Assembly (NCBI GenBank): GCA_964412195.1
Contig: CAYPNP010000011.1
Coordinates: forward strand, 63,881-127,880
Direction: 5' to 3'
DNA length: 64,000 bases
Source: an uncultured Acidobacteriota bacterium
Lineage (GTDB): Bacteria > Acidobacteriota > JAAYUB01
Shown: positions 416 through 62,481 of the stretch, one piece after another
Layout: each line of letters starts with the position of its first letter
Position numbering within the stretch: the stretch's first letter is position 1
Notes under the pieces: generated by a model
Databases searched by the model: none
Seen by the model: only the letters and a program-made list of their open reading frames with translations
Told to the model about the DNA's origin: nothing
Made by a program: the position numbers and the translations under genes

Positions 416-520
416 CGCGGGGACGGGGCGACGGGGGGACGGGGCGACGTAGCCCGCGTCGGCCTCGACGCGGGAGGGTGATTCACCGAAACGGCAAAAC
501 GGCGGTGGGGCGAAACGGCG
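416..520. repeat. GACGGGG(C/G) and AAACGGCG oligomer arrays with an embedded GTAG-REP hairpin (449-474)
   Basis: Starts right after the stop codon. A near copy lies at about 10153-10228. Embedded motif GTAG-CCCGCGTCG-GCCT-CGACGCGGG. Confidence 0.8.
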
Positions 521-605
521 ATCCAGCCGATTAGCCCTGATTCGTCAGTACCGGTAGGCGTCAGCCACCGGTGATTCTCACTTCGGCATCCAGCCTTGAT
601 AAAAC

Positions 606-656
606 TAAAACGGCGAAACGGCGATTCCCTCGCCGTTTCGCCGTTTCGCCGTTTCG
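606..656. repeat. AAACGGCG / CGCCGTTT palindromic array, possible terminator
   Basis: aaacggcgaaacggcg-attccct-cgccgtttcgccgtttcgccgtttcg between convergent genes. Confidence 0.75.
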
Positions 657-668
657 TCGATTCGCGGC

Positions 669-1388
669 CTACTGCCGCCCCCGCGAGGCCAGGAACCGGT
701 CCACCTCCGGCGGCAGGGTGCTGCGGGCGAAGAACCGCAGCTGGGTGATCTTGTCCGGCGCCGAGGCGCCGTACTTGTAGAACACGAGCAGGAATTCGGT
801 GGCGGAGACGCGGCGGTAGGACTTCAGGCTGCCCCACTCGCGCACCCAGGCCCGGTCGGCGCACTTGGCCGAGCCGGTCTCGAAGACGATCTTGTCGGCA
901 CGCAGCCACAGCGTGCCCATGCAGTTGTTGGCGTTCAGGTCCAGCTCCACGTCCAGTTTGTAGGGCAGCTCCAGCTCGCTGCCGGCGGGGCCGCCGCCCT
1001 GCGGGGCGTCGACGCGGCCCATCCGCTGCAGGATGTACTGCAGGGCGGCCTGGTTGTCCGGGCTGTCATTCTTGAATTTCAGGACGTACTTCTGCCCGTG
1101 GCCGTGCTCCTTGTCGGCGAAGAAGATGTGCAGCTCGTAGGTGTTCTTGATCTCGACCTTCTCGAGGGCGGAGTACTCCCACACCCGGCTGTCGCCGACG
1201 ACGGTCCGGGACTCGAAGATGACCTTGTCGTCGCGGACGATCAGATTGCCCTGGCACTCGCCCACGCGGTGGTTGTGCTCCACGGGGATCGTGTACAGGG
1301 TCTCGGCCAGCAGCCAGCCGCCGGCCACCGCCAGGAGCGCCAGCGCGAAGAACAGGGTCCGGGCCGTCGTGTGTCTCATGGTTGCCAT
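669..1388 (-). CDS. Secreted hypothetical protein with two internal repeats (possibly PH-like)
   Basis: GGAGGG RBS before the ATG at 1388 and a signal peptide. Repeated CxGxLxxRxDK[VI][IV]FE[ST] motif. Confidence 0.75.
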   Translation of the reverse strand: MATMRHTTARTLFFALALLAVAGGWLLAETLYTIPVEHNHRVGECQGNLIVRDDKVIFESRTVVGDSRVWEYSALEKVEIKNTYELHIFFADKEHGHGQKYVLKFKNDSPDNQAALQYILQRMGRVDAPQGGGPAGSELELPYKLDVELDLNANNCMGTLWLRADKIVFETGSAKCADRAWVREWGSLKSYRRVSATEFLLVFYKYGASAPDKITQLRFFARSTLPPEVDRFLASRGRQ

Positions 1389-1454
1389 TCCCTCCGGGAG
1401 AATTTTCACCCTAGGATAGCCCAACCAGTCGGGACCTGCAAGGTCATTCCGAGC

Positions 1455-1567
1455 TCAACGTCGAACGTTGAACTTCGAACGCCGAACGCTGAACGAGGAA
1501 AAAATCGAACCGGGTCGGATCCCCGGTTCGACGTTCGGCGTTCGACGTTGGACGTTCAGCGTTCAGA
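1455..1567. repeat. GAACGNN heptamer inverted array
   Basis: cgaacgttgaacttcgaacgccgaacgctgaacg ... cgttcggcgttcgacgttggacgttcagcgttcag. Confidence 0.85.
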
Positions 1568-2582: not shown

Positions 2583-3902
2583 TCACTTGATCGGGACGCA
2601 GGTGCAGACCGGGACGCAGGAGCAGTACGAGTTCCCGCTGGGCCGGGGGACGGGGACCAGGATCGTTCCGGGGACGCAGTTGCAGGTGCACACGCAGCCG
2701 GCGGGGATCGGCGAGCCGCAGGGGAGGGTGTAGGTGATCGTCTGGCCGTACTGGTTGGTCCAGGTGTACTGCTGCGCCTCGCGGTTGTTGTCCAGCGTGG
2801 CTGGGTCAAACAGGTTGGTGAAGTATTCGCCGGTGCCGGCGTCCCACAGGCGGATGGTCTTGTCGTCGGCGCCGGAAGCCAGCACCCTGCCGTCCGGAGA
2901 GTACGCCAGGCAGTTGACAGCGCCTTCATGGCCGGACAGGGTCTTGACCGGCTGCCCGGTGTCGGTCGACCACAGCTTGACCAGGCGGTCCGCGCCGCCT
3001 GAGGCCACGCGCCGCCCGTCGGGGCTGCACAGGATCACGCCGACGCCGGTGCCGTGCGCCTTCCAGACCGGCCCGGGCGCGCCGTCGGGGAGGCCCCAGG
3101 TCCGGATCGTCTCGTCGGCACCGCCGGAGAACAGCCGCCGCCCGTCGGGGCTCCAGGCCACGGCATCCACCGCGGCGCCGTGACCGCGCAGGGTCTGCCG
3201 GCGGAGGCCCTGCGGGATGTCGTAGAGGCCGACGGTGCTGTCGGACGCCGCGGAGGCCAGCCATTGGCCGTCGGGGCTGAACGCCACGGCGCCGACCGGT
3301 CGCCGATGGCCGGTCAGGGTCTTGATGCGGCGGCCGGCCGCCAGGTCCCAGAGCTGGATGGCGCCGTCGTCGGTGCCGGAGGCCAGGTACTTCCCGTCGG
3401 GGCTGCAGTCGACGCAGAGTACGGTCTGGGCCCAGACGCGCAGGGTCTGGCCCAGGATCCCCTCGGGCAGCTGGCGGGACCGGATGGTCTTGTCGGCGTC
3501 ACCATAAACCGCCTCGCCACCCGGGCTGACCGTCACGCAGTGGACGGCGCTCTTGCCCGCCTGGACCTTGTGCAGCCGGCCGAGGGGCATCTCCCAGATC
3601 TTCACCGACATGTCGACGGAACCGGACACCAGGTAGGAACCGGTCCCGTTGAACGCCACGCCCTTCACCGGACCGGCGTGGGCCTGGATCGCCGCCGCCG
3701 GCTTGAGGGCCGGCGCGGCCGCCCGTACCGGCAGGCTCAAGCCGCCCAGGATCGCGGTGCCCGCCGCCGCGGCGACCAGGAAACTGCGCCGGTCCACGCT
3801 CCAGTCGAGCGGGACGTCCGACAGTTCGTACAGGCGGGGCTCGCCGGCGGACGCGTCGGCGTAGAAGTCCTGCAGCTGGAAGCGGGGCCGTCTCTCCGGC
3901 AT
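2583..3902 (-). CDS. Tat-signal WD40 beta-propeller protein (7 repeats) with Cys-rich C-terminal tail; putative radical-SAM substrate
   Basis: GGAGGG RBS, DRRSFL Tat motif, seven GH..SPDG..LASG..D..I.LWD repeats, tail LPCGSPIPAGCVCTCNCVPG..YCSCVPVCTCVPIK. Confidence 0.9.
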   Translation of the reverse strand: MPERRPRFQLQDFYADASAGEPRLYELSDVPLDWSVDRRSFLVAAAAGTAILGGLSLPVRAAAPALKPAAAIQAHAGPVKGVAFNGTGSYLVSGSVDMSVKIWEMPLGRLHKVQAGKSAVHCVTVSPGGEAVYGDADKTIRSRQLPEGILGQTLRVWAQTVLCVDCSPDGKYLASGTDDGAIQLWDLAAGRRIKTLTGHRRPVGAVAFSPDGQWLASAASDSTVGLYDIPQGLRRQTLRGHGAAVDAVAWSPDGRRLFSGGADETIRTWGLPDGAPGPVWKAHGTGVGVILCSPDGRRVASGGADRLVKLWSTDTGQPVKTLSGHEGAVNCLAYSPDGRVLASGADDKTIRLWDAGTGEYFTNLFDPATLDNNREAQQYTWTNQYGQTITYTLPCGSPIPAGCVCTCNCVPGTILVPVPRPSGNSYCSCVPVCTCVPIK

Positions 3903-3997
3903 GGTTCCCTCCCGAGGCAAGTGCTCACCCCGTTGGTAAAGGCTCTCTGATATGGTGACAGGCTATTGAACCACATCGGCGGTACGAAGGCAATGTC

Positions 3998-5497
3998 TCA
4001 CGTGAATTCAGGGCTGATTCCCGGCTCGGCCGGCCCGCCGGGGCGGCACCTGTCCTCCGTTGCCGTGGGCGCCCCGCCCCGAATCCAGGCCCTCCCTCCG
4101 TTTGCCTGGATCTCCTTGAGAACCAGGAATTTCGTCAGCTCCTGGTTCACCCGGCAGCGGAGCGGCAGTTCCCCGGCAGGGAGGCGGCGCTGTCGTTCGC
4201 CCTCCTTGACGGCGCAGTCCCCGGCGCAGTGCCACCGGCAGAAGCAGCCGTCGCAGGCGCGCGCCTGCAGCACCGAGCGCCGGCGGTGGCGGCGGGCGGC
4301 CGCCGGATCGAGGCGGAAATCCCCCGCCCCGTCCCACCGGCCGACCAGGAAGGCGCGGCTGAGGGGGTGCCGCCGCCCGTACACCTCGAAGCAGGCGCTG
4401 ACGTCGCCGGCGGGCGTCACCACCAGCGCCCGGCACGGCGCCAGGCAGAACCGCCGGGTCAGCAGCTCCGGCCGGGCGCCGGAGTAGAACAGCCGGATGC
4501 CGCGGGCGGCCGCGACGTCCCGCGCCGCGGCGAACTGGCGCAGGAACTCGTCCGGCTCGTCCAGCGCCGCGGGGGAGCGGCGGGCGCGGCCGGTGGCGAA
4601 GGCGGGCTCCGCCTGGATGGTGTGCGGCCGGAAGCGGGCGGCGATGTGGGCCACGCTTTCCGCGAGCGAGGCCACGCTGCCGCGCGTGACCGTCAGCCGG
4701 ACGCCGTAGCGGAATCCGGCCGCGTCCAGGGCTTCCAGCGTCCGGGCGGCGCGGCGGTAGGAGCCGCGGCCGCCGGCGCCCGGCCGCTGGGCGTCCTGCA
4801 CGGCCGGCGTCCCGTCGAAGGAGATGCTCAGCTCGGTGAAGTTCCGGAGGATGTAGTCCCGCACCCGGGCGGTCCAGCAGCCGTTGAAGGCGCCGGTCAC
4901 CTGGAGCGGGACGCCGAGGCGGTCCGCGCCGGCTCGGGCGCGGGCCACGGCGCGGGTGAGCACCGGCCAGTTCAGGCTGGGCTCGCCCCCGCCGTGGAAG
5001 GCCAGGGTCATCCCCGGCCGGCCGTGGCGGACCACGTCGGCCAGCACCCGGTCCACCGCCGCCCGGGCGAGGGGCCAGGGCATGTCCTCGGCCGGCAGCT
5101 CGCCCCCGTCGGCGTAGCAGTAGACGCAGCGGAGGTTGCAGCGGTTGGTGAGGAAGAGCACGGCGGTGTCGTAGCCGCCCGCGGCCGCGGCCGGGTCGTC
5201 CGGCGGGGGCGCCGCCTCCCGGAAGAGCCCCAGCCGCTCCAGGCCGGCCAGCAGGGAAGCCGGATCCTCTTCACGGGCCTCCCCTCCCGCGGTGGCCGCC
5301 CGTCCATTCATCGCCTGCTCCGGCGCCTCGGCCCGGCGGCGGACCTGCTCCACCAGCGCGCCGTTGGCGACGAAGGCGATGCCGTGGAGCGGCGCGTACA
5401 CGAGGTACCGGTCCGCGCCGGCCGGCACGGCGAAGATCTGCTCCGGCAGGCGGAAGCGACGGGACGGCGGGAATTCAGCGACGGGAAGGTCGGGCAT
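3998..5497 (-). CDS. Radical SAM/SPASM-domain protein, putative peptide/protein maturase
   Basis: CNLRCVYC (CX3CX2C), FHGGGEP, SPASM cysteines FCLAPC..GDVSACF and CDGCFCRWHCAGDC..RC, and an RRE-like N-terminal extension. Start is at 5497 or 5506. Confidence 0.92.
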   Translation of the reverse strand: MPDLPVAEFPPSRRFRLPEQIFAVPAGADRYLVYAPLHGIAFVANGALVEQVRRRAEAPEQAMNGRAATAGGEAREEDPASLLAGLERLGLFREAAPPPDDPAAAAGGYDTAVLFLTNRCNLRCVYCYADGGELPAEDMPWPLARAAVDRVLADVVRHGRPGMTLAFHGGGEPSLNWPVLTRAVARARAGADRLGVPLQVTGAFNGCWTARVRDYILRNFTELSISFDGTPAVQDAQRPGAGGRGSYRRAARTLEALDAAGFRYGVRLTVTRGSVASLAESVAHIAARFRPHTIQAEPAFATGRARRSPAALDEPDEFLRQFAAARDVAAARGIRLFYSGARPELLTRRFCLAPCRALVVTPAGDVSACFEVYGRRHPLSRAFLVGRWDGAGDFRLDPAAARRHRRRSVLQARACDGCFCRWHCAGDCAVKEGERQRRLPAGELPLRCRVNQELTKFLVLKEIQANGGRAWIRGGAPTATEDRCRPGGPAEPGISPEFT

Positions 5498-5641: not shown

Positions 5642-6130
5642 ATGGCCCGATTCTTCGCCTTGCTTGCCTTTTGCGGACTGCTTGCGGTGGCCTGGATGCC
5701 GGCCCAGCAGAAGCCGGATTTCTCCGGCGATTGGGTGCTCAACAAGGCCCGCACCCGGCTGCAGTTCCCCGACATCACCGCCATCGACCGCGGCTCCATG
5801 GAGATCGAGCGCGAGGGGACCGCATTCAAATTCAAACGGGTGTTCGTCATCGGCCTGGAGAAGGACATCTTCAGCTACGAGCTGACTGCCGACGGCAAGG
5901 AGACGACCACCAAGGAGGGCAAGCGGAGGATCGTCTCCAAATCGTACTGGGACGGGGACGCGCTGGTCTACGACACCAAGATCGACGCGCCGGGGGGCGA
6001 CGCCACCAACGTGGTGCACTACCGGTTGATCGAGGGCGGCCAGGTGCTGGAGGCGGAGGAGCACTTCCGCGGCCCCAAGCACCAGCACGACAACGTCTGG
6101 ATCTTCGACCGCAAGCCCCCTACCCCGTAA
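5642..6130 (+). CDS. Secreted hypothetical protein, lipocalin-like beta-barrel
   Basis: GGAGG RBS, signal peptide, DFSGDWVL (GxW) motif, alternating beta-strand pattern. Confidence 0.75.
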   Translation: MARFFALLAFCGLLAVAWMPAQQKPDFSGDWVLNKARTRLQFPDITAIDRGSMEIEREGTAFKFKRVFVIGLEKDIFSYELTADGKETTTKEGKRRIVSKSYWDGDALVYDTKIDAPGGDATNVVHYRLIEGGQVLEAEEHFRGPKHQHDNVWIFDRKPPTP

Positions 6131-6139
6131 CGGGAAACC

Positions 6140-6260
6140 GGGAATTCACCACAGAGGCACGGAGGACACAGAGGGGAATTCAGGGTTCCGATCCGCAATC
6201 CGCAATCCGAAAACCGCAATCTGCCGATTCACCCATTCACCTATTCACCCATTCACCCAT
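6140..6260. repeat. Composite oligomer array (CACAGAG, ATCCGCA, ATTCACCC modules)
   Basis: Three unit families in series between convergent genes. The last module contains the stop codon of the methyltransferase. Confidence 0.8.
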
Positions 6261-6973
6261 GCCAGGCACGCCAGGTACCCCCACGCCGGCTCGTCTACCA
6301 CGACCTCGCAGGACCAGCCGGCCCGGGCGGCCCGCTCGGCGAGGGTTTCCGGGTCGACGTGGAGCCAGCCGCAGTACGGCCCGCTCTGGCCCGCAAACTC
6401 GAGCTGGATGCGGATCTCGCCGACGTAGCGGCCGGCCTTCCGGTTGGCCTCGTGGTAGGCCAGGTGGCGCGGATCGTCGGTGTGCCGCACGTCCGTCGAA
6501 TCCAGCAGCAGCCGCCCGCCCGGAGCCAGCAGCCGCCGGGCCCGGTCGAGGAAGCGGTCCAGCCCGGCCAGGGTACCGGCAATCCCGACGCCATGGCCCA
6601 GCATCAGCAGGGTGTCGAACGGCCTCTCCTGGAACTGGAAGATGTCCGCGCAGCGGGCATCGCGGACGCTCCGAGCGGTCATGACCGCCACGGCCTCCGG
6701 GCTGATCTCGAGGGCGGTCACGGACAATCCCCGCTCCTGCAGGGCCAGCGTGTGCAGCCCGCTGCCGGCGCCGATGTCCAGCACGCGCCCACGGCATCTC
6801 TCCAGCGCGGCGTTCTCGAGGGGCGTGAACTCCGCCGGCGCCCGGAAAAAGTGGCCCACCGGCAGCGCGTATTCGACGCCGTCATCCCGCCGGACCGTCA
6901 ACCGCGCTTCCCTGTTGCCCTCAAAGTATGCCTTCAGCGCCAGCCCCTGCGGCGACATCGCTTGCGGTTCCAT
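6245..6973 (-). CDS. Class I SAM-dependent methyltransferase
   Basis: Motif I VLDIGAGSG; LEISP; FDTLLMLG. Confidence 0.9.
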   Translation of the reverse strand: MEPQAMSPQGLALKAYFEGNREARLTVRRDDGVEYALPVGHFFRAPAEFTPLENAALERCRGRVLDIGAGSGLHTLALQERGLSVTALEISPEAVAVMTARSVRDARCADIFQFQERPFDTLLMLGHGVGIAGTLAGLDRFLDRARRLLAPGGRLLLDSTDVRHTDDPRHLAYHEANRKAGRYVGEIRIQLEFAGQSGPYCGWLHVDPETLAERAARAGWSCEVVVDEPAWGYLACLAWVNG

Positions 6974-7517: not shown

Positions 7518-8030
7518 ATGAAATACGAGCGATTTGAGGACCTGCCGGCGTGGAAGGCGGCCATTCATCTGGCGATGGCGGTCTACGCCGTGACCCGGGA
7601 CCGGTTCTTCGTGCAGGCGGGCGACCTGCGCAGCCAGTTGCGGCGGGCGGCGCTGTCGGTGTCCAACAACATCGCGGAGGGGTTCGAGCGCGGAACCACC
7701 GCGGAACTCATTTCCTTCCTGTACATCGCGCGCGGATCGGCGGGGGAAGTCCGCTCCATGCTCTGCTTCATCGAGCAGAGCCCGGAATCGGGCCATCTCA
7801 AATCTCAAATTTCAAATTTGAAATTGTTGGCAGAGGATTGCTCCCGGCAACTCAGAGGGTGGACCAACCATCTGCAGAATTCATCCATCCAGGGGCAGCG
7901 GCACCTGACCGATGGCACGCGGAGGCGCGACGCGGCGCGGAAGGACGCGGACGATTTCCAGGCCAAGCTCGCCGAAACCCTGCACCGCGCCCTGCCGAAT
8001 ATTTATCCTGATCCACACTCGGAGGAGTGA
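7518..8030 (+). CDS. Four-helix-bundle protein (23S rRNA IVS / Avd-like family)
   Basis: FEDLPAWK..LRSQLRRAALSVSNNIAEGFERG..FLYIARGSAGEVRSML signature; GAGGAGG RBS. Confidence 0.92.
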   Translation: MKYERFEDLPAWKAAIHLAMAVYAVTRDRFFVQAGDLRSQLRRAALSVSNNIAEGFERGTTAELISFLYIARGSAGEVRSMLCFIEQSPESGHLKSQISNLKLLAEDCSRQLRGWTNHLQNSSIQGQRHLTDGTRRRDAARKDADDFQAKLAETLHRALPNIYPDPHSEE

Positions 8031-9326: not shown

Positions 9327-10127
9327 ATGAGAACGCCGGCACTGAGTCTCGTCCTGTGCGTCCTGGCGCTCGCGGCCGTCGGCTGCCAGCCCAAGCCCAC
9401 CCACTACGTCCAGGTCCAGGTCCGCCTGGAGGCCGCCGGCGTGGACCCGGCCGCGATGCCGGCGCTGCGGGCCCAGGCCGTCCAGATCCTCGACAAGCGG
9501 TTCCGGGACGCCGGGATGGAGGGCGTCCTCCTGCTGGAGGACCCCGCCGCCGCGGACGGGCTGCGCGCCTGCTTCCCCGGCAAGTCGCTGCCCGACGGCA
9601 TGCCGGGCAGCCTGCTGAACCAGACCAAGCTGGAGCTGTGCCTGGTTCATCCCCACGCCACGAAACCGGATACTTCGGAAGCCATCCTGGACCAGTTCAA
9701 CGGGGCGCTTCCCGAAGGTTATCGCCTGGTGCCGTACCTGGGCGGATCGGAGGAGGCGCTGTCCGGTCCGGCGCAGCTCCTAGTGGCGACCGACGCCGTG
9801 ATCACCGACGCTGACATCAAGGACGCCCGCCCGGGCGACTCCGAGGGCCAGCCGTCGGTGAGCTTCACCCTGGTCGAGACGGGGGCGGAGCGGTTCGGCC
9901 GGGTCACCGCGGCCAACATCGGCCGCCAACTGGCCATCCTGCTGGACGGGCAGGCCCTGTCGGCGCCGATCATCCAGTCGAAGATCACCGATTCCGGCAT
10001 CATCACCGGCCTGGGGAAGCCGTCTGAGGCCGAGGACATCGCCCTCTGCCTGCGCTCCCACGCCCTGCCCTGCAAGGTGGCGATCCTATCCCAGAAAGTT
10101 ATTACTCGGGAGTCGCTGGCGCAGTGA
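9327..10127 (+). CDS. Lipoprotein carrying a stand-alone SecD P1 periplasmic domain
   Basis: Lipobox LAAVGC; VSFTL..GAERFGRVTAANIGRQLAILLDG..SAPIIQSKI..G.ITG; no downstream TM helices. Confidence 0.8.
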   Translation: MRTPALSLVLCVLALAAVGCQPKPTHYVQVQVRLEAAGVDPAAMPALRAQAVQILDKRFRDAGMEGVLLLEDPAAADGLRACFPGKSLPDGMPGSLLNQTKLELCLVHPHATKPDTSEAILDQFNGALPEGYRLVPYLGGSEEALSGPAQLLVATDAVITDADIKDARPGDSEGQPSVSFTLVETGAERFGRVTAANIGRQLAILLDGQALSAPIIQSKITDSGIITGLGKPSEAEDIALCLRSHALPCKVAILSQKVITRESLAQ

Positions 10128-10152
10128 GGACGAGATCCCGGCGCATGGCGGT

Positions 10153-10228
10153 GGACGCGGGGACGGGGAGACGGGGGGACGGGGCGATATCGAAACGGCG
10201 AAACGGCGGTGGGGCGAAACGGCGATCG
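10153..10228. repeat. GACGGGG / AAACGGCG array (sister of 416-520 and 55453-55492)
   Basis: Shares aaacggcggtggggcgaaacggcgat with 496-522 and with the 55.46-55.49 kb copy. Confidence 0.85.
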
Positions 10229-12584: not shown

Positions 12585-12591
12585 AAAGCAG

Positions 12592-12672
12592 ATTCACCAC
12601 AGAGACACAAAGGGCACAGAGAGATCCATTAATTCATGGATCTCTTTGTGTTCTCTGTGCCTCTGTGGTGAA
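12592..12672. repeat. CACAGAG/CACAAAG inverted array between convergent genes
   Basis: ttcaccacagagacacaaagggcacagagagatccat-taattc-atggatctctttgtgttctctgtgcctctgtggtgaa. Confidence 0.85.
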
Positions 12673-12677
12673 GGATT

Positions 12678-13589: not shown

Positions 13590-13727
13590 CAATTCAACGC
13601 AGATTTCCGCAGATTTATTATGATCAGTTATGATCTAACCCATTATTCTGATCATAAACAATCATAATTCATCAGCGTCAATCTGCGTTGAATTCTTCTT
13701 TGTGTCCTTTGTGCCTTTGTGGTGAAA
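13590..13727. repeat. Nested palindrome (AATTCAACGCAGAT ... ATCTGCGTTGAATT) plus a CACAAAG module
   Basis: Same arm type and AT-rich TATGAT/ATCATA core as 47605-47765. Confidence 0.8.
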
Positions 13728-13732
13728 GCTCC

Positions 13733-47766: not shown

Positions 47767-47771
47767 ATTTC

Positions 47772-49728: not shown

Positions 49729-49753
49729 ACCTATCGTTTCAAACCAGATACCG

Positions 49754-49792
49754 AAAAAGAAGCCGGCGGCTCGCGGAGCCGCCGGCTTTTTT
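49754..49792. terminator. Bidirectional intrinsic terminator
   Basis: aaaaagaagccggcggctc-gcg-gagccgccggctttttt. Confidence 0.9.
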
Positions 49793-49847
49793 AATCCTAT
49801 GGTTGTCGCCTCGTTCGACACACGGGGGGGACTGTCCCAATCGATGA

Positions 49848-50948: not shown

Positions 50949-52960
50949 GCGTTGTTCCTCCCGGAATGGGCCTCGGGGGACACCTCCGCCATCGGCAGGG
51001 GGTCCAGGGGCCGGGTGGATTCCACCAGGCGGTGGATGGCCGCCTTCAGGCCGGCTACGTCCAGGCCCTGCGAGCGGTACACCTCCTCGGTCGGGCCGGA
51101 GGTGGCGTAGTCCCGCGCCCCCAGCCGGGCGAACCGGACGGCGAAGCCCTCGTCCGCCAGCCGGCGGGCCAGGATCGCCCCGAGGCCGGTGCCCCGGTGG
51201 TGGTCCTCGTAGGTCACCAGCACGCCCGCCGCCCGGATGGCCGTCAGGGCCGCCGGATCCATCTCTTTCGGGCAGGCGAAGTGGACCACGCCCACCGACA
51301 GGCCCTGCGCGGCCAGCTCGTCCGCGGCCTGCACCGCCCGGCCGGCCAGCGTGCCCATGGTGGCGATCACGGCGTCCTGGCCGGTGCGCAGGATGTCGGC
51401 CCGGCCGTAAACGAATTCATAATTCTCGTCGAAGAAGGGGCTCCCGTCCGGGTGCCGGATCACCGGCAGCTTGGACCGGCCCATGCCGATGAAGCAGTTG
51501 CCGGCTTGCGCCGCCGCCCAGCGCACGGCCCGGTCGGTCTGGTTAGGGTCGGCCGGCAGGATGACCCGGAAATGGTGAAGGTTCTGGAGCAAGCCCAGGT
51601 AGTCGATGCACTGGTGGGTTTTTCCGTCCTCACCCACATCCAGCCCCAGGTGGGTGCAGACCACTTTCAGGTTGGCCTCGTTGATGTCGTTGATGCGCTG
51701 CTGGTTGTAGACCTCGTCGACGCCGAAGACGCCGAAGTCGGCCCAGAACACCTGCACCCCCTGCACGGAGAGGGCGCCGGCCGCCACGGCGGCGTGGTGC
51801 TCCATGATGCCGCACTGGAAGAAGCGGTCGGGGTGCGCCTTGGCGAAGCCGGAGGTCTTCACGCTGCCGGCGAGGTCGCAGTCGAACACCGCGATCGGGG
51901 TGGCCGCCGGGTCGCCGGCGTTGGCTGCGGCGACGTCCTCCAGCGCCTTGCCCCAGGCGCTGCGGTTGTCGGTGGGCTTGTCCGGCGGGTAGATCCGCGG
52001 CGAGCCGGGATTCAGCCGCACCTCCGGCCGGTCGACCTCGTAGCCCCTCAGGTGGGCGGTGCCCCGCCGGCGCAGTTCCTTGTACCGGTCCAGCTCCAGC
52101 GGCAGACCCAGCTCGGCCAGGGCCTTGCCCAGCAGCGCCTCGTCCAGCGCCTGGCCGTGCCATTTCTCGTCGTTTTCCATGAAGGCGACGCCCTTGCCCA
52201 TGACCGTGCGGGCCAGGATCGCCACGCAGCGCTCCCGGTCGAGGATTGCTTCCCGGAACGCGCCATAGATCTGGTCGAGGTCGTGGCCGTCGATCTCCAG
52301 CACCCGCCAACCGTCGGAAAGGAAGTTCTCCTTCAGGTTCTGAGGCATCACCACAGAGGTCTTGCCGCTGATCTGTAGGCCGTTCCAGTCGACGACGCAG
52401 GTGAGATGGGTCAATCCGTACTTGACGGCGAACCGGCGGGCCTCGCCGATCTGGCCCTTCTGCTGCTCTCCGTCGCCCATCAGGACGTAGGCGCGGCTGT
52501 CCAGCCCCAGGAGGCGGGACGCCAGGGCCATGCCGCAGCCGGCGGACAGCCCCTGCCCCAGGTTGCCCGAGCTCCACTCCACGCCGGGGACGTTGCGCTC
52601 CACGTGCCCCTCGAAGGGCCCGCCGGCCTGGCGGAAGTGGGCGACGGCGTCCTCCACCGGGAAGAAGCCGAGGTGGCCCAGCGCCGCGTAGACGCCCGGC
52701 GAGGTGTGGCCGTGGCTGACCACGATGCGGTCGCGGGCCGGATCGCGGGGATTCCGCGGATCGACGTTCGCCAGCGACCAGAGAGTGAGGTACAAATCGA
52801 TGGAGGACATGGAGCCGCCGGGGTGGCCGCAGCCGGCCAGGGTGGTCATATGGAGGATGTGGCCGCGGGCCTGCCGGGCCGTCTCCCGGATCCACTCCGC
52901 CGTCTCCGGGGCCAGCCGCTCCGCTCGAAATCCCCGGCATCCGTCCGCGATCTTCGTCAT
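50945..52960 (-). CDS. tkt: Transketolase
   Basis: GHPGGSMS, DRIVVSHGH, GNLGQGLS, GDGEQQKG..WNGLQI, GEDGKTHQ, YEDH. Confidence 0.95.
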   Translation of the reverse strand: MTKIADGCRGFRAERLAPETAEWIRETARQARGHILHMTTLAGCGHPGGSMSSIDLYLTLWSLANVDPRNPRDPARDRIVVSHGHTSPGVYAALGHLGFFPVEDAVAHFRQAGGPFEGHVERNVPGVEWSSGNLGQGLSAGCGMALASRLLGLDSRAYVLMGDGEQQKGQIGEARRFAVKYGLTHLTCVVDWNGLQISGKTSVVMPQNLKENFLSDGWRVLEIDGHDLDQIYGAFREAILDRERCVAILARTVMGKGVAFMENDEKWHGQALDEALLGKALAELGLPLELDRYKELRRRGTAHLRGYEVDRPEVRLNPGSPRIYPPDKPTDNRSAWGKALEDVAAANAGDPAATPIAVFDCDLAGSVKTSGFAKAHPDRFFQCGIMEHHAAVAAGALSVQGVQVFWADFGVFGVDEVYNQQRINDINEANLKVVCTHLGLDVGEDGKTHQCIDYLGLLQNLHHFRVILPADPNQTDRAVRWAAAQAGNCFIGMGRSKLPVIRHPDGSPFFDENYEFVYGRADILRTGQDAVIATMGTLAGRAVQAADELAAQGLSVGVVHFACPKEMDPAALTAIRAAGVLVTYEDHHRGTGLGAILARRLADEGFAVRFARLGARDYATSGPTEEVYRSQGLDVAGLKAAIHRLVESTRPLDPLPMAEVSPEAHSGRNNA

Positions 52961-53051
52961 GGAGCGCTCCCCTCGTCAGGTTAGTGCGCCAGTATACCGC
53001 CTTCGCCGGGAAACATCAATCCTGGGAGATACCACGATGTCAAGCTCTGTT

Positions 53052-53237
53052 ACCTATCGGTATCGGCGTCGGTATCGGGATCGGTATCGATTCTGAGCTC
53101 GTCTTCCCAGCTCGATGCCGATACCGATGCCGATACCGACCCCGAGGGAGAGGCTGGGACCACTGGATCTTGCGGCTCGACTTCGATGTGCAGCGTTCAG
53201 CATTCAGGGTTCGATGTCCAACGTTCCGCGTTCGGAC
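53052..53237. repeat. GGTATC/GATACC inverted array plus a CGTTC module between divergent genes
   Basis: tcggtatcggcgtcggtatcgggatcggtatcga ... tcgatgccgataccgatgccgataccga. Confidence 0.82.
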
Positions 53238-55452: not shown

Positions 55453-55610
55453 GACGGAAACGGCGAAACGGCGGTGGGGCGAAACGGCGATACCCAGCCG
55501 TGCCACGGGAAATCGGTACACCGAGCGTCAGGGGCTGGCGCTGGTTGTTACCCATCCCCTACGGTCGGAGTCACCGTTCAGCGTTCGGCGTTCGATGTTC
55601 GCCGTTCAGA
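55453..55610. repeat. AAACGGCG module and CGTTC module between convergent genes
   Basis: aaacggcgaaacggcggtggggcgaaacggcgata; gttcagcgttcggcgttcgatgttcgccgttcaga. Confidence 0.75.
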
Positions 55611-57736: not shown

Positions 57737-58525
57737 TCAATTCCGCGGCAGATCCTCCGCCTCGATGCCGGCGCGCGTCCCGGGCCGGCCGTCCAACAAC
57801 GCCAGAATCTCGGCGTACCCCAGGCGCCCGGCAAGACCGGCGGCCGTTTCGCCCCGGTCGTCCCGGGCGGACCGGTCGGCGCCGCGCTCCAGCAGCCAGC
57901 GGACGGCTTCCGTCCGCCCGTTGCCGCACGCCACCATCAGCGGGGTGGCGCCGCCCTCCATCCTGGCCTCGACGCGGGCGCCCCGCTCCACCAGGAGCCC
58001 CGCCACTCCCAGGTAGCCTCCGCTGACCGCCGCCATGAGCGCCGTCCAGCCGATGTCCGAGGCTGCGTTCGGGTCCGCGCCCCGCTCCAGGAGCGCTTCC
58101 ACCGCGGCCCGGTGCCCGCCGACCGCGGCGTACATCAGCGCCGTGTAGCCGTCCTTGCGGCGCCCGTCCGCCGAAGCCCCCCGGTCCAGCAGCCTCCGCA
58201 CGACGCCCGCATGCCCCCGCCCGGCGGCGGCCATCAACGCTGTGACGCCGCCGGGACCGGTTGCATCGACGGCGGCTCCCGCGTCCAGCAGGCGCACGAC
58301 GATCTCCTCCCCACCCAGCCAGGCGGCCAAGACCAGCGGGGTCAAGCCGTTGGCGGCGCGGACCTCCACGTCGGCCCCTTCTCGGAGCAGTCGCTCCACA
58401 CATTCGGTCTGTCCTTTCCGCACCGCGTCGAACAGGTCGCTTTGGTCCTCCACCGTTTCACCGGCGGCCAACGTCCACGCAAATGCCGCCGCGAGCCATA
58501 GCCAACCGATCTGCTTCATGCTCAT
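57737..58525 (-). CDS. Exported ankyrin-repeat protein
   Basis: About six G.T(P/A)L(M/V).A..G...V..LL..GAD repeats; signal peptide. Confidence 0.93.
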   Translation of the reverse strand: MSMKQIGWLWLAAAFAWTLAAGETVEDQSDLFDAVRKGQTECVERLLREGADVEVRAANGLTPLVLAAWLGGEEIVVRLLDAGAAVDATGPGGVTALMAAAGRGHAGVVRRLLDRGASADGRRKDGYTALMYAAVGGHRAAVEALLERGADPNAASDIGWTALMAAVSGGYLGVAGLLVERGARVEARMEGGATPLMVACGNGRTEAVRWLLERGADRSARDDRGETAAGLAGRLGYAEILALLDGRPGTRAGIEAEDLPRN

Positions 58526-58702: not shown

Positions 58703-59959
58703 ATGGCTTCCTGGCGGGACAACCTGCGTCGCCACCTCCTGGACGGACCTCTCCGAGCCCTGCACGCCCGGAATTTCCGCATTTTCTACATCGGCCAGGC
58801 TGTTTCCCTGGTCGGCACCTGGATGACCCGCGTGGCCATGGGCTGGCTCGTCTATCGCCTCACCGATTCTGCTTTTCTGCTGGGAGTAGTGGGATTCGCC
58901 GGTCAGATCCCCGCCTTCTTCCTGGCACCCATCGCCGGCTGGCTGGCGGACCGGCTGAGCAAGTGGCGGATCCTGGTGGTCACCCAGACGCTCGCGATGC
59001 TCCAGTCGTTCGCCCTGGCGGCGCTCACGCTGACCGGCGCCGTCCGCATCTGGCACCTGGTGGCACTGGCCGCCTTCCAGGGCTTCGTGGACGCATTCGA
59101 CATGACCACCCGCCAGTCGTTCGTGGTGGAGATGGTGGACCGCCGGGAGGACCTGCCCAACGCCATCGCCCTCAATTCCATGTCCTTCAACGCCGCCCGG
59201 ATGATCGGGCCCTCGGTGGCCGGCATCCTGATCGGGGTGTGGAACGAGGGGGCCTGCTTCCTGATCGACGGCGTCAGCTACCTGGCGGTGATCGTGTCGC
59301 TGTTCCGGATGTCCGTCCCGCCGTTCATCGCGGCCTCCGGCGCGCCTTCGCTGCGACGGGGCCTGGGCGAGGGCTTCCGGTACGCCTTCACGCACCCGAC
59401 GATCCGGTCGGTGTTGCTCAGCATCGCCCTGCTGGGGACGGTGGGCATGTCCTACAGCGTGATCATGCCGGTGATCGCCCGGGACGTGCTCCACGGCGAG
59501 GCGCACACCTTGGGGTTCCTGCTGTCGTCCGTCGGCGTGGGCGCCCTGGCCGGCGGAGTCTACCTGGCCTCCACGCGGTCCGTCAGCGGCCTGGGCGCGC
59601 GGATCAGCGTCGCCGCCCTCGCCGGCGGGTTCTGGCTGGCGGGCTTGGGGCTCTCCCGGACCATGTGGCTGTCCATGGCCCTGATGTTCCTGATTGGCCT
59701 CAGCTTCATGGTCCAGATGGCCTCCGGCAACACCTTCATCCAGACGACCGTCACCGACGACAAGCGCGGCCGGGTGATGAGCCTGTACACTATGGCGTTC
59801 ATGGGCTCGGCCCCGCTGGGCAGCCTGCTCACCGGCCAGGTGACGCAGCGCTTCGGTGCTCCCGCCACCTGCCTGCTGGGCGGCGCGATCTACCTGGCCT
59901 GTTCGCTGTTGCTGGCGCGGGAGTTCCGCCGCGGCCAATCACGGACCGGTGACGGATGA
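58703..59959 (+). CDS. MFS transporter (MFS_3 / DHA3-like)
   Basis: RNFRIFYIGQAVSLVGTWM, GWLADR, NAIALNSMSFNAARMIGP, RGRVMS; about 12 TM helices. Confidence 0.93.
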   Translation: MASWRDNLRRHLLDGPLRALHARNFRIFYIGQAVSLVGTWMTRVAMGWLVYRLTDSAFLLGVVGFAGQIPAFFLAPIAGWLADRLSKWRILVVTQTLAMLQSFALAALTLTGAVRIWHLVALAAFQGFVDAFDMTTRQSFVVEMVDRREDLPNAIALNSMSFNAARMIGPSVAGILIGVWNEGACFLIDGVSYLAVIVSLFRMSVPPFIAASGAPSLRRGLGEGFRYAFTHPTIRSVLLSIALLGTVGMSYSVIMPVIARDVLHGEAHTLGFLLSSVGVGALAGGVYLASTRSVSGLGARISVAALAGGFWLAGLGLSRTMWLSMALMFLIGLSFMVQMASGNTFIQTTVTDDKRGRVMSLYTMAFMGSAPLGSLLTGQVTQRFGAPATCLLGGAIYLACSLLLAREFRRGQSRTGDG

Positions 59960-60041
59960 CGGGTGACCGGTGACGGTCGATGGTGACGGGGGATAGAAGT
60001 TAGATCGCATTCACCGGTCTTCGGTCACCGATCATCCGTCA
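59940..60041. repeat. GTGACGG/CGGTCAC inverted array overlapping the MFS stop codon
   Basis: ggtgacggatgacgggtgaccggtgacgg ... tcaccggtcttcggtcaccgatcatccgtca. Confidence 0.8.
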
Positions 60042-60105
60042 GATTCCCATTGTCCCGGCCGGCGGCAGGTGGCTATAATGCCTCCTCATCAGGAGGAGTC
60101 GAGCG

Positions 60106-61047
60106 ATGCGGATCGTTTTCATGGGCACCCCCGAGTTCGCCGTGCCGTCCCTGGCCGCCCTGGTGGACGCCGGGGAAGAGGTGGCGGCCGTCGTCACCCA
60201 GCCCGACCGGCCGGCGGGCCGCGAGCTGCACCTGACCCCACCGCCGGTGAAGGTCTGGGCCGCCCCCCGGGGCCTGCCCGTGCTCCAGCCGGCGACGCTC
60301 AAGGACCCGGCGGCCCGGGAGGCGATCCTCGGCCTGAAACCCGACCTGCTGGTGGTGGCCGCCTACGGCCACCTCCTCCCCTCCGTCCTGCTCGACACCC
60401 CGCCGCTCGGCGCCCTCAACGTCCACGCCTCTCTCCTGCCGAAGTATCGCGGCGCCGCGCCGATCCACTGGGCCATCATGCTGGGCGAAAAGGAGACCGG
60501 CATCTCCGTCATCCGGCTGGCCCGGGAGCTGGACGCGGGCGACATCCTGTTGCAGTCCCACGAGCCGATCTGGCCCGACGACACGGCCGGCAGCCTGCAC
60601 GATCGGCTGATGCGCCGGGGGGCGCGCTGCCTGCTCGAGGCGGTGGGCCTCCTGAAGGAGGGCCGGGCCGCGTGGACCCGCCAGGACCCCGCGCGGGTCA
60701 CTTTCGCCCCGGCCCTGAGCCGCGACCAGGCACGATTGGACTGGGCCCGCCCGGCCCCCGTCTGCCACGATTTCATCCGCGGGCTGAGCCCCTGGCCGGT
60801 GGCGTTCACTGCCTTCCGCGGCCAGCCCTGCAAGATCTGGCGCTCTACGCCTCCGCGGGGGGAGCCGGGACCCGGCTATGCCCTCCAGCCGGGCCGCATG
60901 CTCGCCACCGCCAGCGCCCTTAGGGTCCAATGCGGAGACGGCGGCTGGCTGGACCTCCTGGAGCTGCAGGTCCCCGGACGGCGGGTGATCTCCGGCGCCG
61001 AGTTCGCCCACGGCTTCCACATCCTGGAAGGGGACCGGTTTGAGTAA
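60106..61047 (+). CDS. fmt: Methionyl-tRNA formyltransferase
   Basis: FMGTPEFA, VVTQPDRPAGR, NVHASLLPKYRGAAPI. Confidence 0.97.
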   Translation: MRIVFMGTPEFAVPSLAALVDAGEEVAAVVTQPDRPAGRELHLTPPPVKVWAAPRGLPVLQPATLKDPAAREAILGLKPDLLVVAAYGHLLPSVLLDTPPLGALNVHASLLPKYRGAAPIHWAIMLGEKETGISVIRLARELDAGDILLQSHEPIWPDDTAGSLHDRLMRRGARCLLEAVGLLKEGRAAWTRQDPARVTFAPALSRDQARLDWARPAPVCHDFIRGLSPWPVAFTAFRGQPCKIWRSTPPRGEPGPGYALQPGRMLATASALRVQCGDGGWLDLLELQVPGRRVISGAEFAHGFHILEGDRFE

Positions 61048-62383
61048 GCCGCGCCGTCCCAATGCCCGGTCGCTGGCGGCCCGTTTCCTGGATGAGATCT
61101 TCCGCAAGGGAAGAATCCCCGAGCAGCTCGGCCAGGAGGACGACTTCCGCGCCTTGAGTCCGGGCGACCGGGCGCTCTGCCACGAGCTGGTGCTCGGCAG
61201 CCTGCGCCACTTGTCCCTGCTGGACGCCGTCCTCGGCCGGTTCTGCCGCCGGCCGATCCGCCACCTGGACCCGCGCCTGCAGCAGGTCCTCCGCGTGGCC
61301 GCCTACCAGCTGCTGCGGCTGGAGCGCGTGCCAGGCTACGCGGCCGTCAACGAGGCCGTGGCCGAAGCCCGGGCCGGCGGCTTCGACCGGCAGGCCGGCT
61401 TCGTCAACGCCGTGCTGCGGCAGGTGGCCGACATCCACGATCCGGCGGGATTTCTGCAACTGGATGCGGATTCCGCCGGGAGCCTGGCCACCCTGAACTC
61501 CCACCCGCTGTTCCTGGTCGAGCGATGGTTGGAGCAGCATCCCGCCGCCGCCGTGCGGGCCTGGCTGGAGCGGTCCGGACGGCCGCCGGCCCACTTCCTG
61601 ACCGTGAACACCAGGAAAACGACCTTGGAGGAATTTCTGGCCGCGTGCCGGGAACGCGGAGCCGAGGCCGCCCCGGCCGGCCCGGGCCTGCCGGTGGCGG
61701 AGGTGCCGGGTTCGCTGCTGCCGCTGGAGCCCCTCCTGTCCGGCGGGCTCGCCTTCCCGCAGGACCTGTGGTCCCATGCCGTGACCGCCCTGGTCCCGGA
61801 CGCCGGCTACCGCCGGATCCTGGACCTCTGCGCCGCGCCCGGCGGCAAGACCTTCGCCCTGGCCCTGCGTTTCCCGGCGGCAGAGCTGTGCGCCATGGAC
61901 GTCAGCCCGGTCCGCCTGCGGATCATGGCCGAACGGGCCGCGGTGCTGGGCCTGGACCGGATCGCGCTGCTGGCCGGCGACGCCGCCGATCCGCCGCTGC
62001 CGGCGGGCGGTTGGGACCTGGTCCTGGTGGACGCCCCCTGCTCCGGCACCGGGACGCTGCAGCGCAACCCGGACCTGCGCTGGCGGCTCGTGCCCGAGGA
62101 ATTCCTCCGGCAGGCCCACCGCCAGCGCCGCATCCTGGCTGCCGCCGCCGAGCGGGTCGCCCCCGGCGGCCGGCTGGTCTACTCCACCTGTTCGGCCGAG
62201 CCGGAGGAGAACCAGGCGGTGGTGGAAGGTTTCCTGGCCGGCCCCACCGGCTCCGGTTTCGCCGTCGAACCGGTGGACGACCGCTGGGCGGACTTCCGCA
62301 CGCCCGAGGGATACTTCCAGACTTTCCCCCGCGCCGACCGGGGCGAGGGCTTCTTCGCCGCCCTCCTCAAACGTCGAGACTAA
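61040..62383 (+). CDS. rsmB: 16S rRNA m5C967 methyltransferase
   Basis: NusB-like N-domain (AVNEAV..FVNAVLR), DLCAAPGGKT, DAPCSGTG, YSTCS. Confidence 0.95.
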   Translation: MSKPRRPNARSLAARFLDEIFRKGRIPEQLGQEDDFRALSPGDRALCHELVLGSLRHLSLLDAVLGRFCRRPIRHLDPRLQQVLRVAAYQLLRLERVPGYAAVNEAVAEARAGGFDRQAGFVNAVLRQVADIHDPAGFLQLDADSAGSLATLNSHPLFLVERWLEQHPAAAVRAWLERSGRPPAHFLTVNTRKTTLEEFLAACRERGAEAAPAGPGLPVAEVPGSLLPLEPLLSGGLAFPQDLWSHAVTALVPDAGYRRILDLCAAPGGKTFALALRFPAAELCAMDVSPVRLRIMAERAAVLGLDRIALLAGDAADPPLPAGGWDLVLVDAPCSGTGTLQRNPDLRWRLVPEEFLRQAHRQRRILAAAAERVAPGGRLVYSTCSAEPEENQAVVEGFLAGPTGSGFAVEPVDDRWADFRTPEGYFQTFPRADRGEGFFAALLKRRD

Positions 62384-62388
62384 ATCAC

Positions 62389-62481
62389 TCACCACAAAGC
62401 CACAAAGGGCACAAAGAAAATCTTTCTGATTGGTATTCCATCAATAATGTTCTTCGTGTCCTTTGTGCCTTTGTGGTGAAA
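62389..62481. repeat. CACAAAG/CTTTGTG inverted array between convergent genes
   Basis: tcaccacaaagccacaaagggcacaaagaa ... ttcttcgtgtcctttgtgcctttgtggtga. Confidence 0.85.

Follow-up and report, generated by a model that had tools for sequence, protein, structure and literature searches.

The intergenic spaces of a 64-kb stretch of chromosomal DNA (about 67% GC) from an uncultured Acidobacteriota bacterium (contig CAYPNP010000011.1), referred to here as the window, carry a family of short tandem-repeat arrays, many of which face their own reverse complement across a loop. The gene map, built from a codon-usage log-odds score, with Pfam and the synteny of a relative as support, places them among genes for haem synthesis (a radical-SAM enzyme, URO-D, ferrochelatase and PPO), other housekeeping genes (transketolase, Fur, peroxiredoxin, ferritin and a DEAD-box helicase) and TonB-dependent receptors with CarboxypepD_reg domains, all assigned through Pfam. 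The nearest named match of the transketolase is in an Acidobacteria metagenome-assembled genome (MAG), at 61% identity, and PPO has metagenomic relatives at 66–91% identity.

Tandem Repeats Finder (TRF) returned 161 rows over the window. Arrays with a period of 5–24 cover 1,864 of 7,527 intergenic bp (24.8%), compared with 1,800 of 56,473 coding bp (3.2%). Intergenic array cover, at 1,814 bp, is about 40 times the mean of 30 dinucleotide-preserving shuffles of that intergenic sequence (44 bp, maximum 122). In a typical module, a unit of 7 or 8 nt (overall range 6–10 nt) is repeated four to five times, giving a length of about 30 nt; 28 non-redundant period-7 and 18 period-8 arrays were found, drawn from about 30 unit types. 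In some units one or two positions vary around a conserved core, as in GAACG followed by YY and in TATCGG. Identical arrays are present in two independent assemblies of a relative (L001 and L189), which argues against an assembly artefact.

The arrays are placed with respect to genes in a consistent way. They start 0–25 nt past stop codons, and, when array coordinates are laid over the gene map, we count about six stop codons that are themselves overlapped, for example by the arrays at 414–449, 6227–6260, 15119–15174, 16050–16092 and 24358–24373. Arrays were seen in 21 of 29 spacers between convergent or co-directional genes, and in one of seven divergent spacers (Fisher p 0.008).

Each spacer of at least 60 bp was also scored for folding against shuffles. 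Eleven are strongly palindromic, with z from -4.4 to -17.9 (416–668, 1425–1583, 12585–12677, 13593–13732, 14960–15169, 16727–16909, 24104–24371, 26609–27004, 32511–32824, 47590–47771 and 62384–62481). Their common plan sets a module and its reverse complement on either side of a unique loop, and nesting, to at most three levels, is common. Seven other array spacers are one-armed, strand-asymmetric and unstructured, folding only as well as shuffles or less well (z 0.1 to 1.8; 6089–6244, 10128–10208, 15818–16090, 18347–18446, 19467–19591, 23100–23497 and 40510–40612). Among hairpins that share an arm unit the loop differs at every site. The symmetric register gives no better complementarity between arms than do shifts by whole units, and unit identity is slightly higher inside an arm than across the two arms (0.863 versus 0.847, p 0.012). 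An earlier, sequence-only reading of the window had described modular, often palindromic elements with a shared vocabulary in more than 20 regions. This description holds: all 15 units that it listed were recovered as TRF arrays, from 414–449 to 62392–62475, 22 of the 36 spacers of at least 60 bp bear arrays, and inverted pairing lies far above shuffles.

The same reading had set these elements apart from CRISPR, from repetitive extragenic palindromic (REP) sequences of the GTAG type and from hairpins with T-tails, and rightly so. The units are 6–10 nt long and run head to tail with no regular spacers, and no cas domains were found in Pfam scans of the window. Inverted doublets that form hairpins, lie outside genes and sit near 3′ ends are REP-like; the arms, by contrast, are direct tandem arrays, the one-armed regions do not fold (z of at least 0) and no GTAG head was seen. 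The number of terminator-like sites does not exceed that in shuffles (13 versus 12.3; 14 versus 11.7), and the array hairpins, which have no U-tails, are not among these sites, so the hairpins are not intrinsic terminators. Two canonical bidirectional terminators, at 26642–26662 and 49760–49788, have GC-rich stems of 8 and 13 bp, each with a T-rich tail on either strand, so ordinary terminators are in use in this genome besides the array hairpins. Since the large palindrome at 26.6–27.0 kb sits between a stop codon and the first of these terminators, it is a passenger of the 3′ untranslated region (3′-UTR) rather than a terminator. A search of the window with Rfam 15 gave 0 matches at the gathering threshold.

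Comparison with relatives shows that the arrays turn over at fixed sites, at a pace well above that of the genes. L001 is a 21-kb syntenic stretch of a relative whose genes are about 92% identical to those of the window at the DNA level, and nearly every array-bearing spacer differs between the two. The site downstream of PPO holds at least four module sets among genomes with genes 88–92% identical: a GAACG hairpin flanked by CACAAAG in the window and L127; CGTAAT and GGGATCT arrays with a TATCGG hairpin in L001, L189 and L126; a CCGAT arm only in L190; and yet other modules in L124. A CCTTTGCG array beside the gene that follows this site is common to the window, L001, L189 and L190. In the spacer between AdK and PBP, the composite at 24114–24373 (z -5.0) has outer ACCACGAACCACAC / GTGTGTTTCGTG arms around GATTGCG ×6.7, AAATTTC ×4.1 and GATTGCG ×4.7; the outer ACCACGAACCACAC arms are kept in the window, L001 and L124, and the interiors are unrelated. 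The divergent promoter spacer at 21745–21895, the one that aligns with L001, is conserved and array-free. Polymorphism of presence, absence and module content at orthologous sites, which the sequence-only reading had proposed as a check, was thus found in L001 and other relatives; together with the excess of inverted pairing, it means that the underlying observation stands.

The most elaborate element is a three-level nested palindrome at 26668–27005 (z -17.9), in which GATTGCG arms enclose CGCAAAGG arms, these enclose ACACGGAT arms, and the last enclose a unique loop. Its outer stem is 59 bp and its inner stem 42 bp, and it abuts the stop of gene 27005–27763 (-). All three levels also exist in L001 (1368–1707), where the unique loop is inverted relative to the flanking genes, as would be expected of recombination between the arms. 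A deeper comparison is offered by the haem genes. The hemE–hemH–hemY junctions are 0–10 bp long, or the genes overlap, in the more distant relatives L125 and L003 (PPO identity 74% and 66%), and are 50–225 bp long and filled with arrays in the window clade (16910–21738 in the window), so that a formerly compact operon has been spread out. L125 has arrays at other places; in 14 kb of L002 and L003 there are none, and array load among close lineages ranges from zero to about 30 bp per kb. Very close strains were sought in order to catch single array events, and the metagenome scan returned two short contigs only. One Logan contig (L194) is 99.9% identical to window positions 47973–53141 and shows no array difference; it comes from SRR12489243, so the organism was present in that sample. 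Sample ERZ25038436 likewise contains the organism or a close relative.

Array length follows a sharp rule. Among the matches listed, GATTGCG arrays (n=169) have three, four or five units in 24, 112 and 18 cases, the mode of the exact periodic run is 32 nt, and (GATTGCG)4GATTG is the commonest, canonical form. Period-7 arrays in general peak at 4.x copies: 11 of 28 in the window, 208 of 395 in other genomes (among the matches listed) and 136 of 299 in viral contigs. A second rule concerns polarity. Inverted TRF pairs were collected from the window, its relatives, 120 genome loci (among the matches listed) and 61 viral loci, and the G-rich arm is the 5′ arm in 111 of them versus 10 (p 1e-22). 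Within the same set this persists when GATTGCG is left aside (45 versus 6 pairs; 35 versus 6 distinct families, p 5e-6), and the viral loci give 28 pairs versus 4. In the window, the purine-rich strand of arrays runs 5′ to 3′ away from the nearest open reading frame (ORF) in 31 cases versus 7 (p 1e-4), and a hand count of stems of at least 15 bp gave 16 purine-first versus 2. Avoidance of start codons or selection for stop codons would seem a poor source of this polarity: GATTGCG is stop-free in all frames, and CTTTGTG arms upstream of genes are GTG-rich.

These rules bear directly on the simplest explanation, ordinary microsatellite dynamics, in which slippage favoured at 7 nt expands chance repeats and selection keeps useful 3′-UTR RNA hairpins, with no special machinery. 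An open-ended vocabulary would be natural under such dynamics, units are homogenised within arms, and unit variants within arrays resemble mutation plus slippage; moreover, a polymerase-footprint hypothesis has been put forward for the excess of heptamers (PMC4692102, citing a 2007 survey of simple sequence repeats, SSRs). Slippage, however, predicts neither the sharp copy mode at four, which shows no decay, nor the polarity towards ORFs and within pairs; it would not swap whole modules for unrelated units at one site, it does not by itself produce inverted arms and nesting, and it sits poorly with close lineages that range so widely in load. The four-unit mode, the polarity and the wholesale replacement of modules thus argue against plain slippage, and we consider it an unlikely account.

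Similar arrays extend far beyond the Acidobacteriota. An exact (CAATCCG)×3 was found in at least 120 contigs, at locus GC contents of 42% to 73%, with MAG labels that include Acidobacteriota, Planctomycetota, Verrucomicrobiota, Gemmatimonadota, Chloroflexota, Bacteroidota, Armatimonadota and others, all among the matches listed; it also occurs in 61 viral contigs. The typical element elsewhere, again among the matches listed, consists of an arm of about 30 nt, a unique loop of 3–25 nt and a complementary arm of about 30 nt, about 75–80 nt in total, and dozens of unrelated units take this form. Two arbitrary permutations of the heptamer were also found as arrays in viral contigs, in 15 and 6 stretches versus 61 for CAATCCG and some with inverted partners; by a rough estimate, any 21-mer is expected there well below one time. 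The vocabulary is therefore open-ended, GATTGCG being favoured only about 4–10-fold. This weakens the idea that a shared template lies behind the (GATTGCG)n arrays of different phyla, and a single sequence-specific template behind the arrays is unlikely.

Replacement of modules can be followed inside a gene as well. A GT39 (ArnT-like) gene of Saprospiraceae carries (CAATCCG)n in frame, encoding PQSAIRNPQSAI, which explains the spurious IRNPQSAI-like peptides that the sequence-only reading had mentioned for other genomes. At the same loop, orthologues 63–89% identical (L006 5360–5400, L191, L192 and L193) each have a different in-frame heptamer array, namely (CAATCCG)4, (ACTGCCA)5, (CCAATCA)4 with (CCAATTT)3, or (CTGCCAA)4. 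The loop is an enduring hot spot where one whole module takes the place of another.

A distribution of this kind, and the shape of the elements, might equally be sought in mobile DNA, and the sequence-only reading had itself suggested actively spreading non-autonomous elements. On this account they would be of the REPIN, bacterial interspersed mosaic element (BIME) or miniature inverted-repeat transposable element (MITE) type, the pairs of ~30-nt arms serving as substrate of a trans-acting transposase encoded elsewhere (a RAYT-type HUH protein or a binder of subterminal tandem repeats), and nesting would arise by insertion into loops. The geometry is indeed REPIN-like, with two ~30-nt arms, a short loop, a total of about 75–80 nt and a polarity fixed within each family; the elements are extragenic and near 3′ ends, they occur in viral contigs, and their load is lineage-specific (none in L002 and L003). 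Some blocks also look copied. A two-level palindrome of about 105 bp is found at 13593–13692 and 47631–47740, at two L001 sites and in L126, and one copy in relatives occupies a site where the window has something else. Likewise, the module order CACGAAA, CAATCC, CCACGAACCACAC, TGAAATTTCA, CAATCCG, CTCCGCA is common to three loci, at 40512–40700, 24190–24385 (-) and L001 4880–5125 (-), in the manner of BIME mosaics. Against a mobile origin, the arms of the ~105-bp palindrome are conserved but its loops vary, as loops do among all copies with the same arm, and neither a conserved flank nor a target duplication was found around 168 arrays (among the matches listed), which excludes MITEs of the usual kind. 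The arms are direct tandem arrays rather than palindromic REPs with a GTAG head, arbitrary heptamers form equal structures, mirror arms show no register preference, and one polarity is common to about 40 unrelated unit families, which is unexpected of independent families of terminal inverted repeats. Pfam scans of the 64-kb window found no transposase, reverse transcriptase (RT) or HUH gene, and neither the window nor the 21-kb syntenic L001 locus has a transposase or RAYT. Taken together, unique loops, non-mirror arms, the lack of target duplications and the shared polarity argue against copy-paste, and the mobile-element account is doubtful in our view.

We lean, tentatively and with rather less than even confidence, towards a different reading, in which a polar process of repeat synthesis or template switching builds modules on the spot and exchanges them there, and transcription yields REP/BIME-like stem-loops in 3′-UTRs; both the process and the RNA role are ones that we infer. 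At the DNA level, modules would arise and be replaced at the site instead of moving as preformed transposons. A process independent of the unit sequence would extend a seed of about 7 nt, by reiteration, to some 30 nt. It would act on the strand with its 3′ end directed from the flanking gene to the middle of the spacer, and the facing arm would be formed by fold-back, by inverted template switching or by the same synthesis at the two ends of a break before these are joined; any of these would explain the fixed purine-first (G-first) polarity. Origin in place is suggested by the different loops at each site, the lack of preference for the symmetric register, the likeness of units within an arm and the missing flanks and duplications. 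New modules may originate at the centre of existing hairpins, so that outer arms would be the older, conserved ones and inner arms the younger, variable ones; conserved outer arms around different inner modules among the window, L001 and L124 point the same way. Ectopic conversion between similar arrays may in turn exchange blocks among sites, which would account for the common vocabulary and for module orders that recur. In RNA, each element is predicted to form a long stem-loop lacking a U-tail, on one transcript with the upstream gene, with a probable REP/BIME-like role in 3′-end protection or cistron decoupling, not termination. Templated-repeat synthesis had been the other origin suggested by the sequence-only reading; it is the better fit to the size quantum, the polarity and the open vocabulary, and as a process it remains conjectural.

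Several observations weigh against synthesis in place. The window offers no candidate for the enzyme, and no synthesis or fold-back intermediate has been seen, so the process is reconstructed from its end products only. The recurrent composite blocks are 60–85% identical and copy-like, which a mobile element would fit too, and the gap between within-arm and between-arm identity is small. In the window, the G-over-C form of the polarity is not significant (24 versus 15) and the purine form alone holds; the CACAAAG/CACGAAC arms there are C-first, being C-rich yet purine-first, and nested inner pairs from TRF contributed two cases only to the polarity test. The size mode could stem from selection on arm length instead of a synthesis quantum. 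Finally, the lineage-specific load, with no arrays in L002 and L003, hints at a dedicated transferable factor as opposed to generic replication, so a dedicated enzyme, either a transposase or a synthesis enzyme, remains a serious possibility. The structure of the arrays, their rules of size and polarity, their turnover and their distribution are matters of observation.

A broader form of synthesis in place, which we hold to be quite improbable, would see the arrays as footprints of a DNA transaction widespread in environmental bacteria and phages, namely a polar, sequence-agnostic copying of a seed of about 7 nt, four to five times, onto DNA 3′ termini at broken sites or stalled forks, after which the ends would join or fold back. 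Purine-first head-to-head arrays would follow from the joined or fold-back ends and nesting from repeated breakage at the hairpin centre, in a bacterial analogue of telomerase-type healing carried out by a polymerase, a primase-polymerase or an RT. In eukaryotes, head-to-head telomere-repeat junctions and telomerase healing reiterate G- or purine-rich units toward the junction, with the polarity (unit)n-(complement)n. The likeness to the window is a geometric analogy only, the window having many units and a telomere one. To our knowledge, no telomerase-like repeat-adding enzyme is known in bacteria, and none was found in the window.

One gene of the window invites yet another explanation. The gene at 7518–8030 (+) encodes a four-helix-bundle protein (TIGR02436 / PF05635, the 23S rRNA intervening-sequence, Avd-like family), and an AAATTTC-type array at 7795–7825 (+) lies in frame within it (HLKSQISNLK); L001 carries this array as well, so it is not a fresh insertion. 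In one Saprospiraceae locus (L006), a four-helix-bundle gene (4479–4886) lies directly upstream of the array-bearing GT39 gene. The arrays might be cis-regulatory sites for a multimeric RNA- or single-stranded-DNA-binding protein, one 5-nt core per subunit and four to five cores per module, with cold-shock/S1 OB-fold proteins, CsrA or a pentameric four-helix-bundle (Avd-like) protein as candidates. The units with a conserved core and one or two variable positions (GAACG with YY, TATCGG), the constant module size and the presence of the TIGR02436 gene would suit such sites, and binding of S1, Csp or CsrA has been proposed for TAACTGA repeats (MacGregor, PMC4679880). Yet dozens of unrelated units, arbitrary permutations included, behave alike; orthologous genes have different modules or none, which does not suit gene-specific regulation; and arrays occur inside ORFs too. 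Local linkage to four-helix-bundle genes, a family that the sequence-only reading had singled out, also failed to appear, as an iterative search with the window protein over all ORFs found the family at 2 of about 190 other array loci (among the matches listed), with no enrichment. A literature search on the TIGR02436 family returned nothing relevant. We regard a binding-site role as very unlikely.

Among known systems, the arrays belong to the heptamer-type long SSR class, exemplified by the short tandemly repeated repetitive (STRR) sequences of cyanobacteria, GGGAATC of Xanthomonas and TAACTGA of Beggiatoaceae, since several unit types of about 7 nt are dispersed in intergenic DNA. The cyanobacterial STRR and small dispersed repeats, linked with the names of Mazel (1990) and Elhai (2008), are said to comprise several tandem heptamers dispersed in intergenic DNA, the latter type reportedly being associated with heptamer arrays and hairpins. 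The window differs in being non-cyanobacterial and 67% GC, and inverted nested arms and a quantum of about 4.5 copies are central to it. The closest likeness is to the GGGAATC repeats of Xanthomonas, which mostly have four units, form 70–75 convergent pairs and have a G-rich strand that starts a mean of 28 nt from the 5′ ORF, often over the stop, 7–8% lying between divergent ORFs (Rehm et al., 2015, PMC4692102). The window shares the roughly four units, the convergent pairs, the proximity of an ORF 5′ of the G-rich strand and the depletion between divergent ORFs. Like the window arrays, GGGAATC and the Nostoc GGGGAYT are intergenic heptamers in convergent pairs near ORF ends and rare between divergent ORFs, vary in length and sequence even between sister species, and show no linkage to insertion sequences (PMC4692102). 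They represent one G-rich unit family, read as a G-quadruplex (PMC4692102), whereas the window has about 30 unit types, most of them, by sequence, unlikely to form one; as read from the sequence, four G-tracts are present only in the GACGGGG(C/A) arrays at 414–449, 10153–10184 and 42291–42324, and most units (GATTGCG, GAACGYY, TATCGG) have none. Modules in the window are, in addition, concatenated and nested to as many as three levels, and their polarity is purine-based and not strictly G-based.

The TAACTGA heptamer forms short arrays of 2–6 copies in Beggiatoaceae, Cyanobacteria and Bacteroidetes, with no evident transfer mechanism (MacGregor, 2015, PMC4679880). It is a single unit, with 169 direct sets against 1 indirect, mostly just before start codons (PMC4679880), in contrast to the many units and the inverted pairs after stops in the window. 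REP, REPIN and BIME elements resemble the window arrays as extragenic hairpin doublets of about 70–100 nt near 3′ ends, mosaic and strain-variable, and plausibly stabilise mRNA 3′ ends (Bertels and Rainey, 2011, PMC3116915). Each of their arms is an imperfectly palindromic sequence headed by GTAG, and their copies are near-identical, spacers included (PMC3116915), whereas the window has tandem arms, unique loops, an open vocabulary and no RAYT seen. Over-representation of heptamers in many bacterial genomes has been known since at least 2007, according to the SSR survey cited in PMC4692102. No mechanism is offered in these papers (PMC4692102, PMC4679880, PMC3116915), so the remark in the sequence-only reading that it knew of none was fair, and a search of the accessible literature for the GATTGCG array sequence or its peptide returned no matching paper.

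The window contributes a new lineage with nested elements of many unit types. It also shows that the size mode and the polarity hold generally, for different unit families, in different phyla and in viruses, and it gives direct evidence that modules are replaced at single sites and that ancestral sites were empty. Any mechanism will have to reproduce the module of about 30 nt, the purine-first polarity over about 40 unit families, the apparent growth from the centre, module replacement at fixed sites and depletion from promoter spacers, and these rules can be put to the test in Xanthomonas, Nostoc and other carriers that can be grown. The arrays also have practical effects: spurious or altered ORFs (QSAIRNP-type peptides), stop codons supplied by arrays, compact operons split and short-read assemblies broken. 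Three short-read contigs, from this organism or related ones, terminate inside arrays, L194 at its start and L126 and L190 at their ends, for example in a TATCGG hairpin. Arrays break such assemblies, and array load in MAGs is probably underestimated.

The remaining elements of the window show how these modules are combined. Unless a strand is given, they have none assigned. The convergent spacer at 414–665 (z -4.7) begins with GACGGGGC ×4.5 at 414–449, which lies over the stop of the + gene and is G-quadruplex-capable by sequence, continues with CGAAACGG ×4.4 at 487–521 and closes with a AAACGGCG / TCGCCGTT hairpin at 608–665, whose end lies 4 nt away from the stop codon of the - gene. A GAACGYY hairpin at 1457–1569 (z -6.9) has an arm of ×4.6–5.6, a loop with a small hairpin of its own and an RRCGTTC arm, in a stem of 34 bp. 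The one-armed module pair at 6191–6260 (-), with ATCCGCA ×4.4 and ATTCACCC ×4.2, has its purine-rich strand on the - strand (z +0.8) and overlaps the stop of gene 6245–6973 (-). Another one-armed pair, at 10153–10225 (+), joins GGACGGGG ×4.0 to CGAAACGG ×4.4, 26 nt past the stop of gene 9327–10127 (z +1.8); the L001 sequence at this site is unrelated. Between convergent genes at 12593–12672, CACAGAG/CACAAAG-type arms of 35 bp form a hairpin (z -11.4), and L001 has a nested hairpin of CGCAAAGG and GAACG instead. The two-level palindrome at 13593–13728 (z -7.6) has arms of ACGCAGATT ×2 and TTATGAT ×2, plus a CTTTGTG array. At 47607–47762, ACACGGAT-type outer arms surround the same ACGCAGATT/TTATGAT element in a nested palindrome (z -9.4).

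In and around the haem genes, the hairpin at 15046–15174 (z -4.4) has an AGTGAGG(AGATAGG) arm, a loop of 45 nt and a CCTATCTCCTCACT arm, with a stem of 31 bp, and its array contains the stop codon of gene 15170–15817 (-); L001 and L189 have GGGTGAAT and GTCCATC modules there. It is followed by a one-armed composite at 15880–16092 (-; z +0.5) of AATTGCG ×5, GGGCTCG ×4, TTCGTGT, TTCGTGTGG and GATTGCG pieces, which overlaps the stop of gene 16091–16726 (-) and has a different module set in L001 and L190. The nested element at 16738–16904 (z -5.5) has an outer arm of CGCAAAGG (CCTTTGCG on the gene-sense - strand) and an inner GAACGYY hairpin of ×6 / ×5.7. At the ferrochelatase–PPO junction, 18364–18493, ACACGGATG arms have GGTGAAT units inside, and in L001 this element type lies one gene junction further upstream. 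The array past URO-D at 19542–19576 (-), CCGATTCA ×4.4 (GGTGAAT-type on the - strand), begins 16 nt after the URO-D stop; the same junction is 0–3 bp in L125 and L003. The one-armed composite at 23131–23440 (+; z +0.1) consists of CGAACAT ×4.7, CAATCCG, CACGAACCA, an 18-mer ×2, ACTCCGC and CCGAGCC ×9.3, and its pyrimidine-rich strand runs into the start of the PBP gene.

Further along, the spacer upstream of the hydrogenase operon (28467–28674) holds an ATCGGT/CCGATA hairpin at 28467–28545 and ATCGTA ×6.7 at 28632–28674. A hairpin at 32519–32697 (z -6.9), which starts 9 nt past the stop of gene 31824–32510, pairs a GGACGAT ×6 arm with a GTCCATC ×10 arm in a 30-bp stem, with GGTCTGT units between. 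The [NiFe] hydrogenase operon itself (28963–32510) encodes the small subunit, the large subunit and cytochrome b and has array hairpins on either side. Inverted arms at 34978–35059 are made of GACCGGT ×3.7, a 22-nt loop and CGGTCAC ×4.9. The one-armed composite at 40512–40700 (+; z +0.8) lies upstream of the DEAD-box helicase gene, which has an in-frame array of its own at 42291–42324 (+), GACGGGGA ×4.2 in the C-terminal tail (GRGDGGTGRRG). The unit GACGGGGA also makes the intergenic arrays at 414–449 and 10153–10184. The hairpin at 53055–53142 (z -3.1), TATCGG ×5.8 / CGATAC ×4.5, lies in a divergent spacer and is the sole clear array between promoters. Two one-armed arrays converge at 55457–55607, GAAACGGC ×4.2 after the + gene and CGTTCGG ×4.7 (GAACG on the - strand) after the - gene, and facing arms at 59944–60041 set GACGGGT ×4.7 against TCACCGATCATCCG ×2.2. 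The last hairpin, at 62389–62479 (z -10.7), has a CCACAAAG(G) ×3 arm, a loop and a CCTTTGTG arm in a 28-bp stem, 6 nt past the stop of gene 61040–62383.

Some minor observations remain. In a Verrucomicrobiae MAG (L069, 1000–1250), a block of (GATTGCG)4, (GAGTGAT)n and a G-rich linker is present in three tandem copies. An HrpB-like helicase gene of an Acidobacteriota MAG (L010, 7290–7880) has three GATTGCG-type arrays, and its frame appears shifted after one of them, through either a pseudogene or an assembly indel. WD40 and ankyrin repeat domains are typical of eukaryotes; both are encoded in this bacterial chromosome, by the genes for a WD40 beta-propeller protein at 2583–3920 (-) and an ankyrin-repeat protein at 57737–58525 (-).

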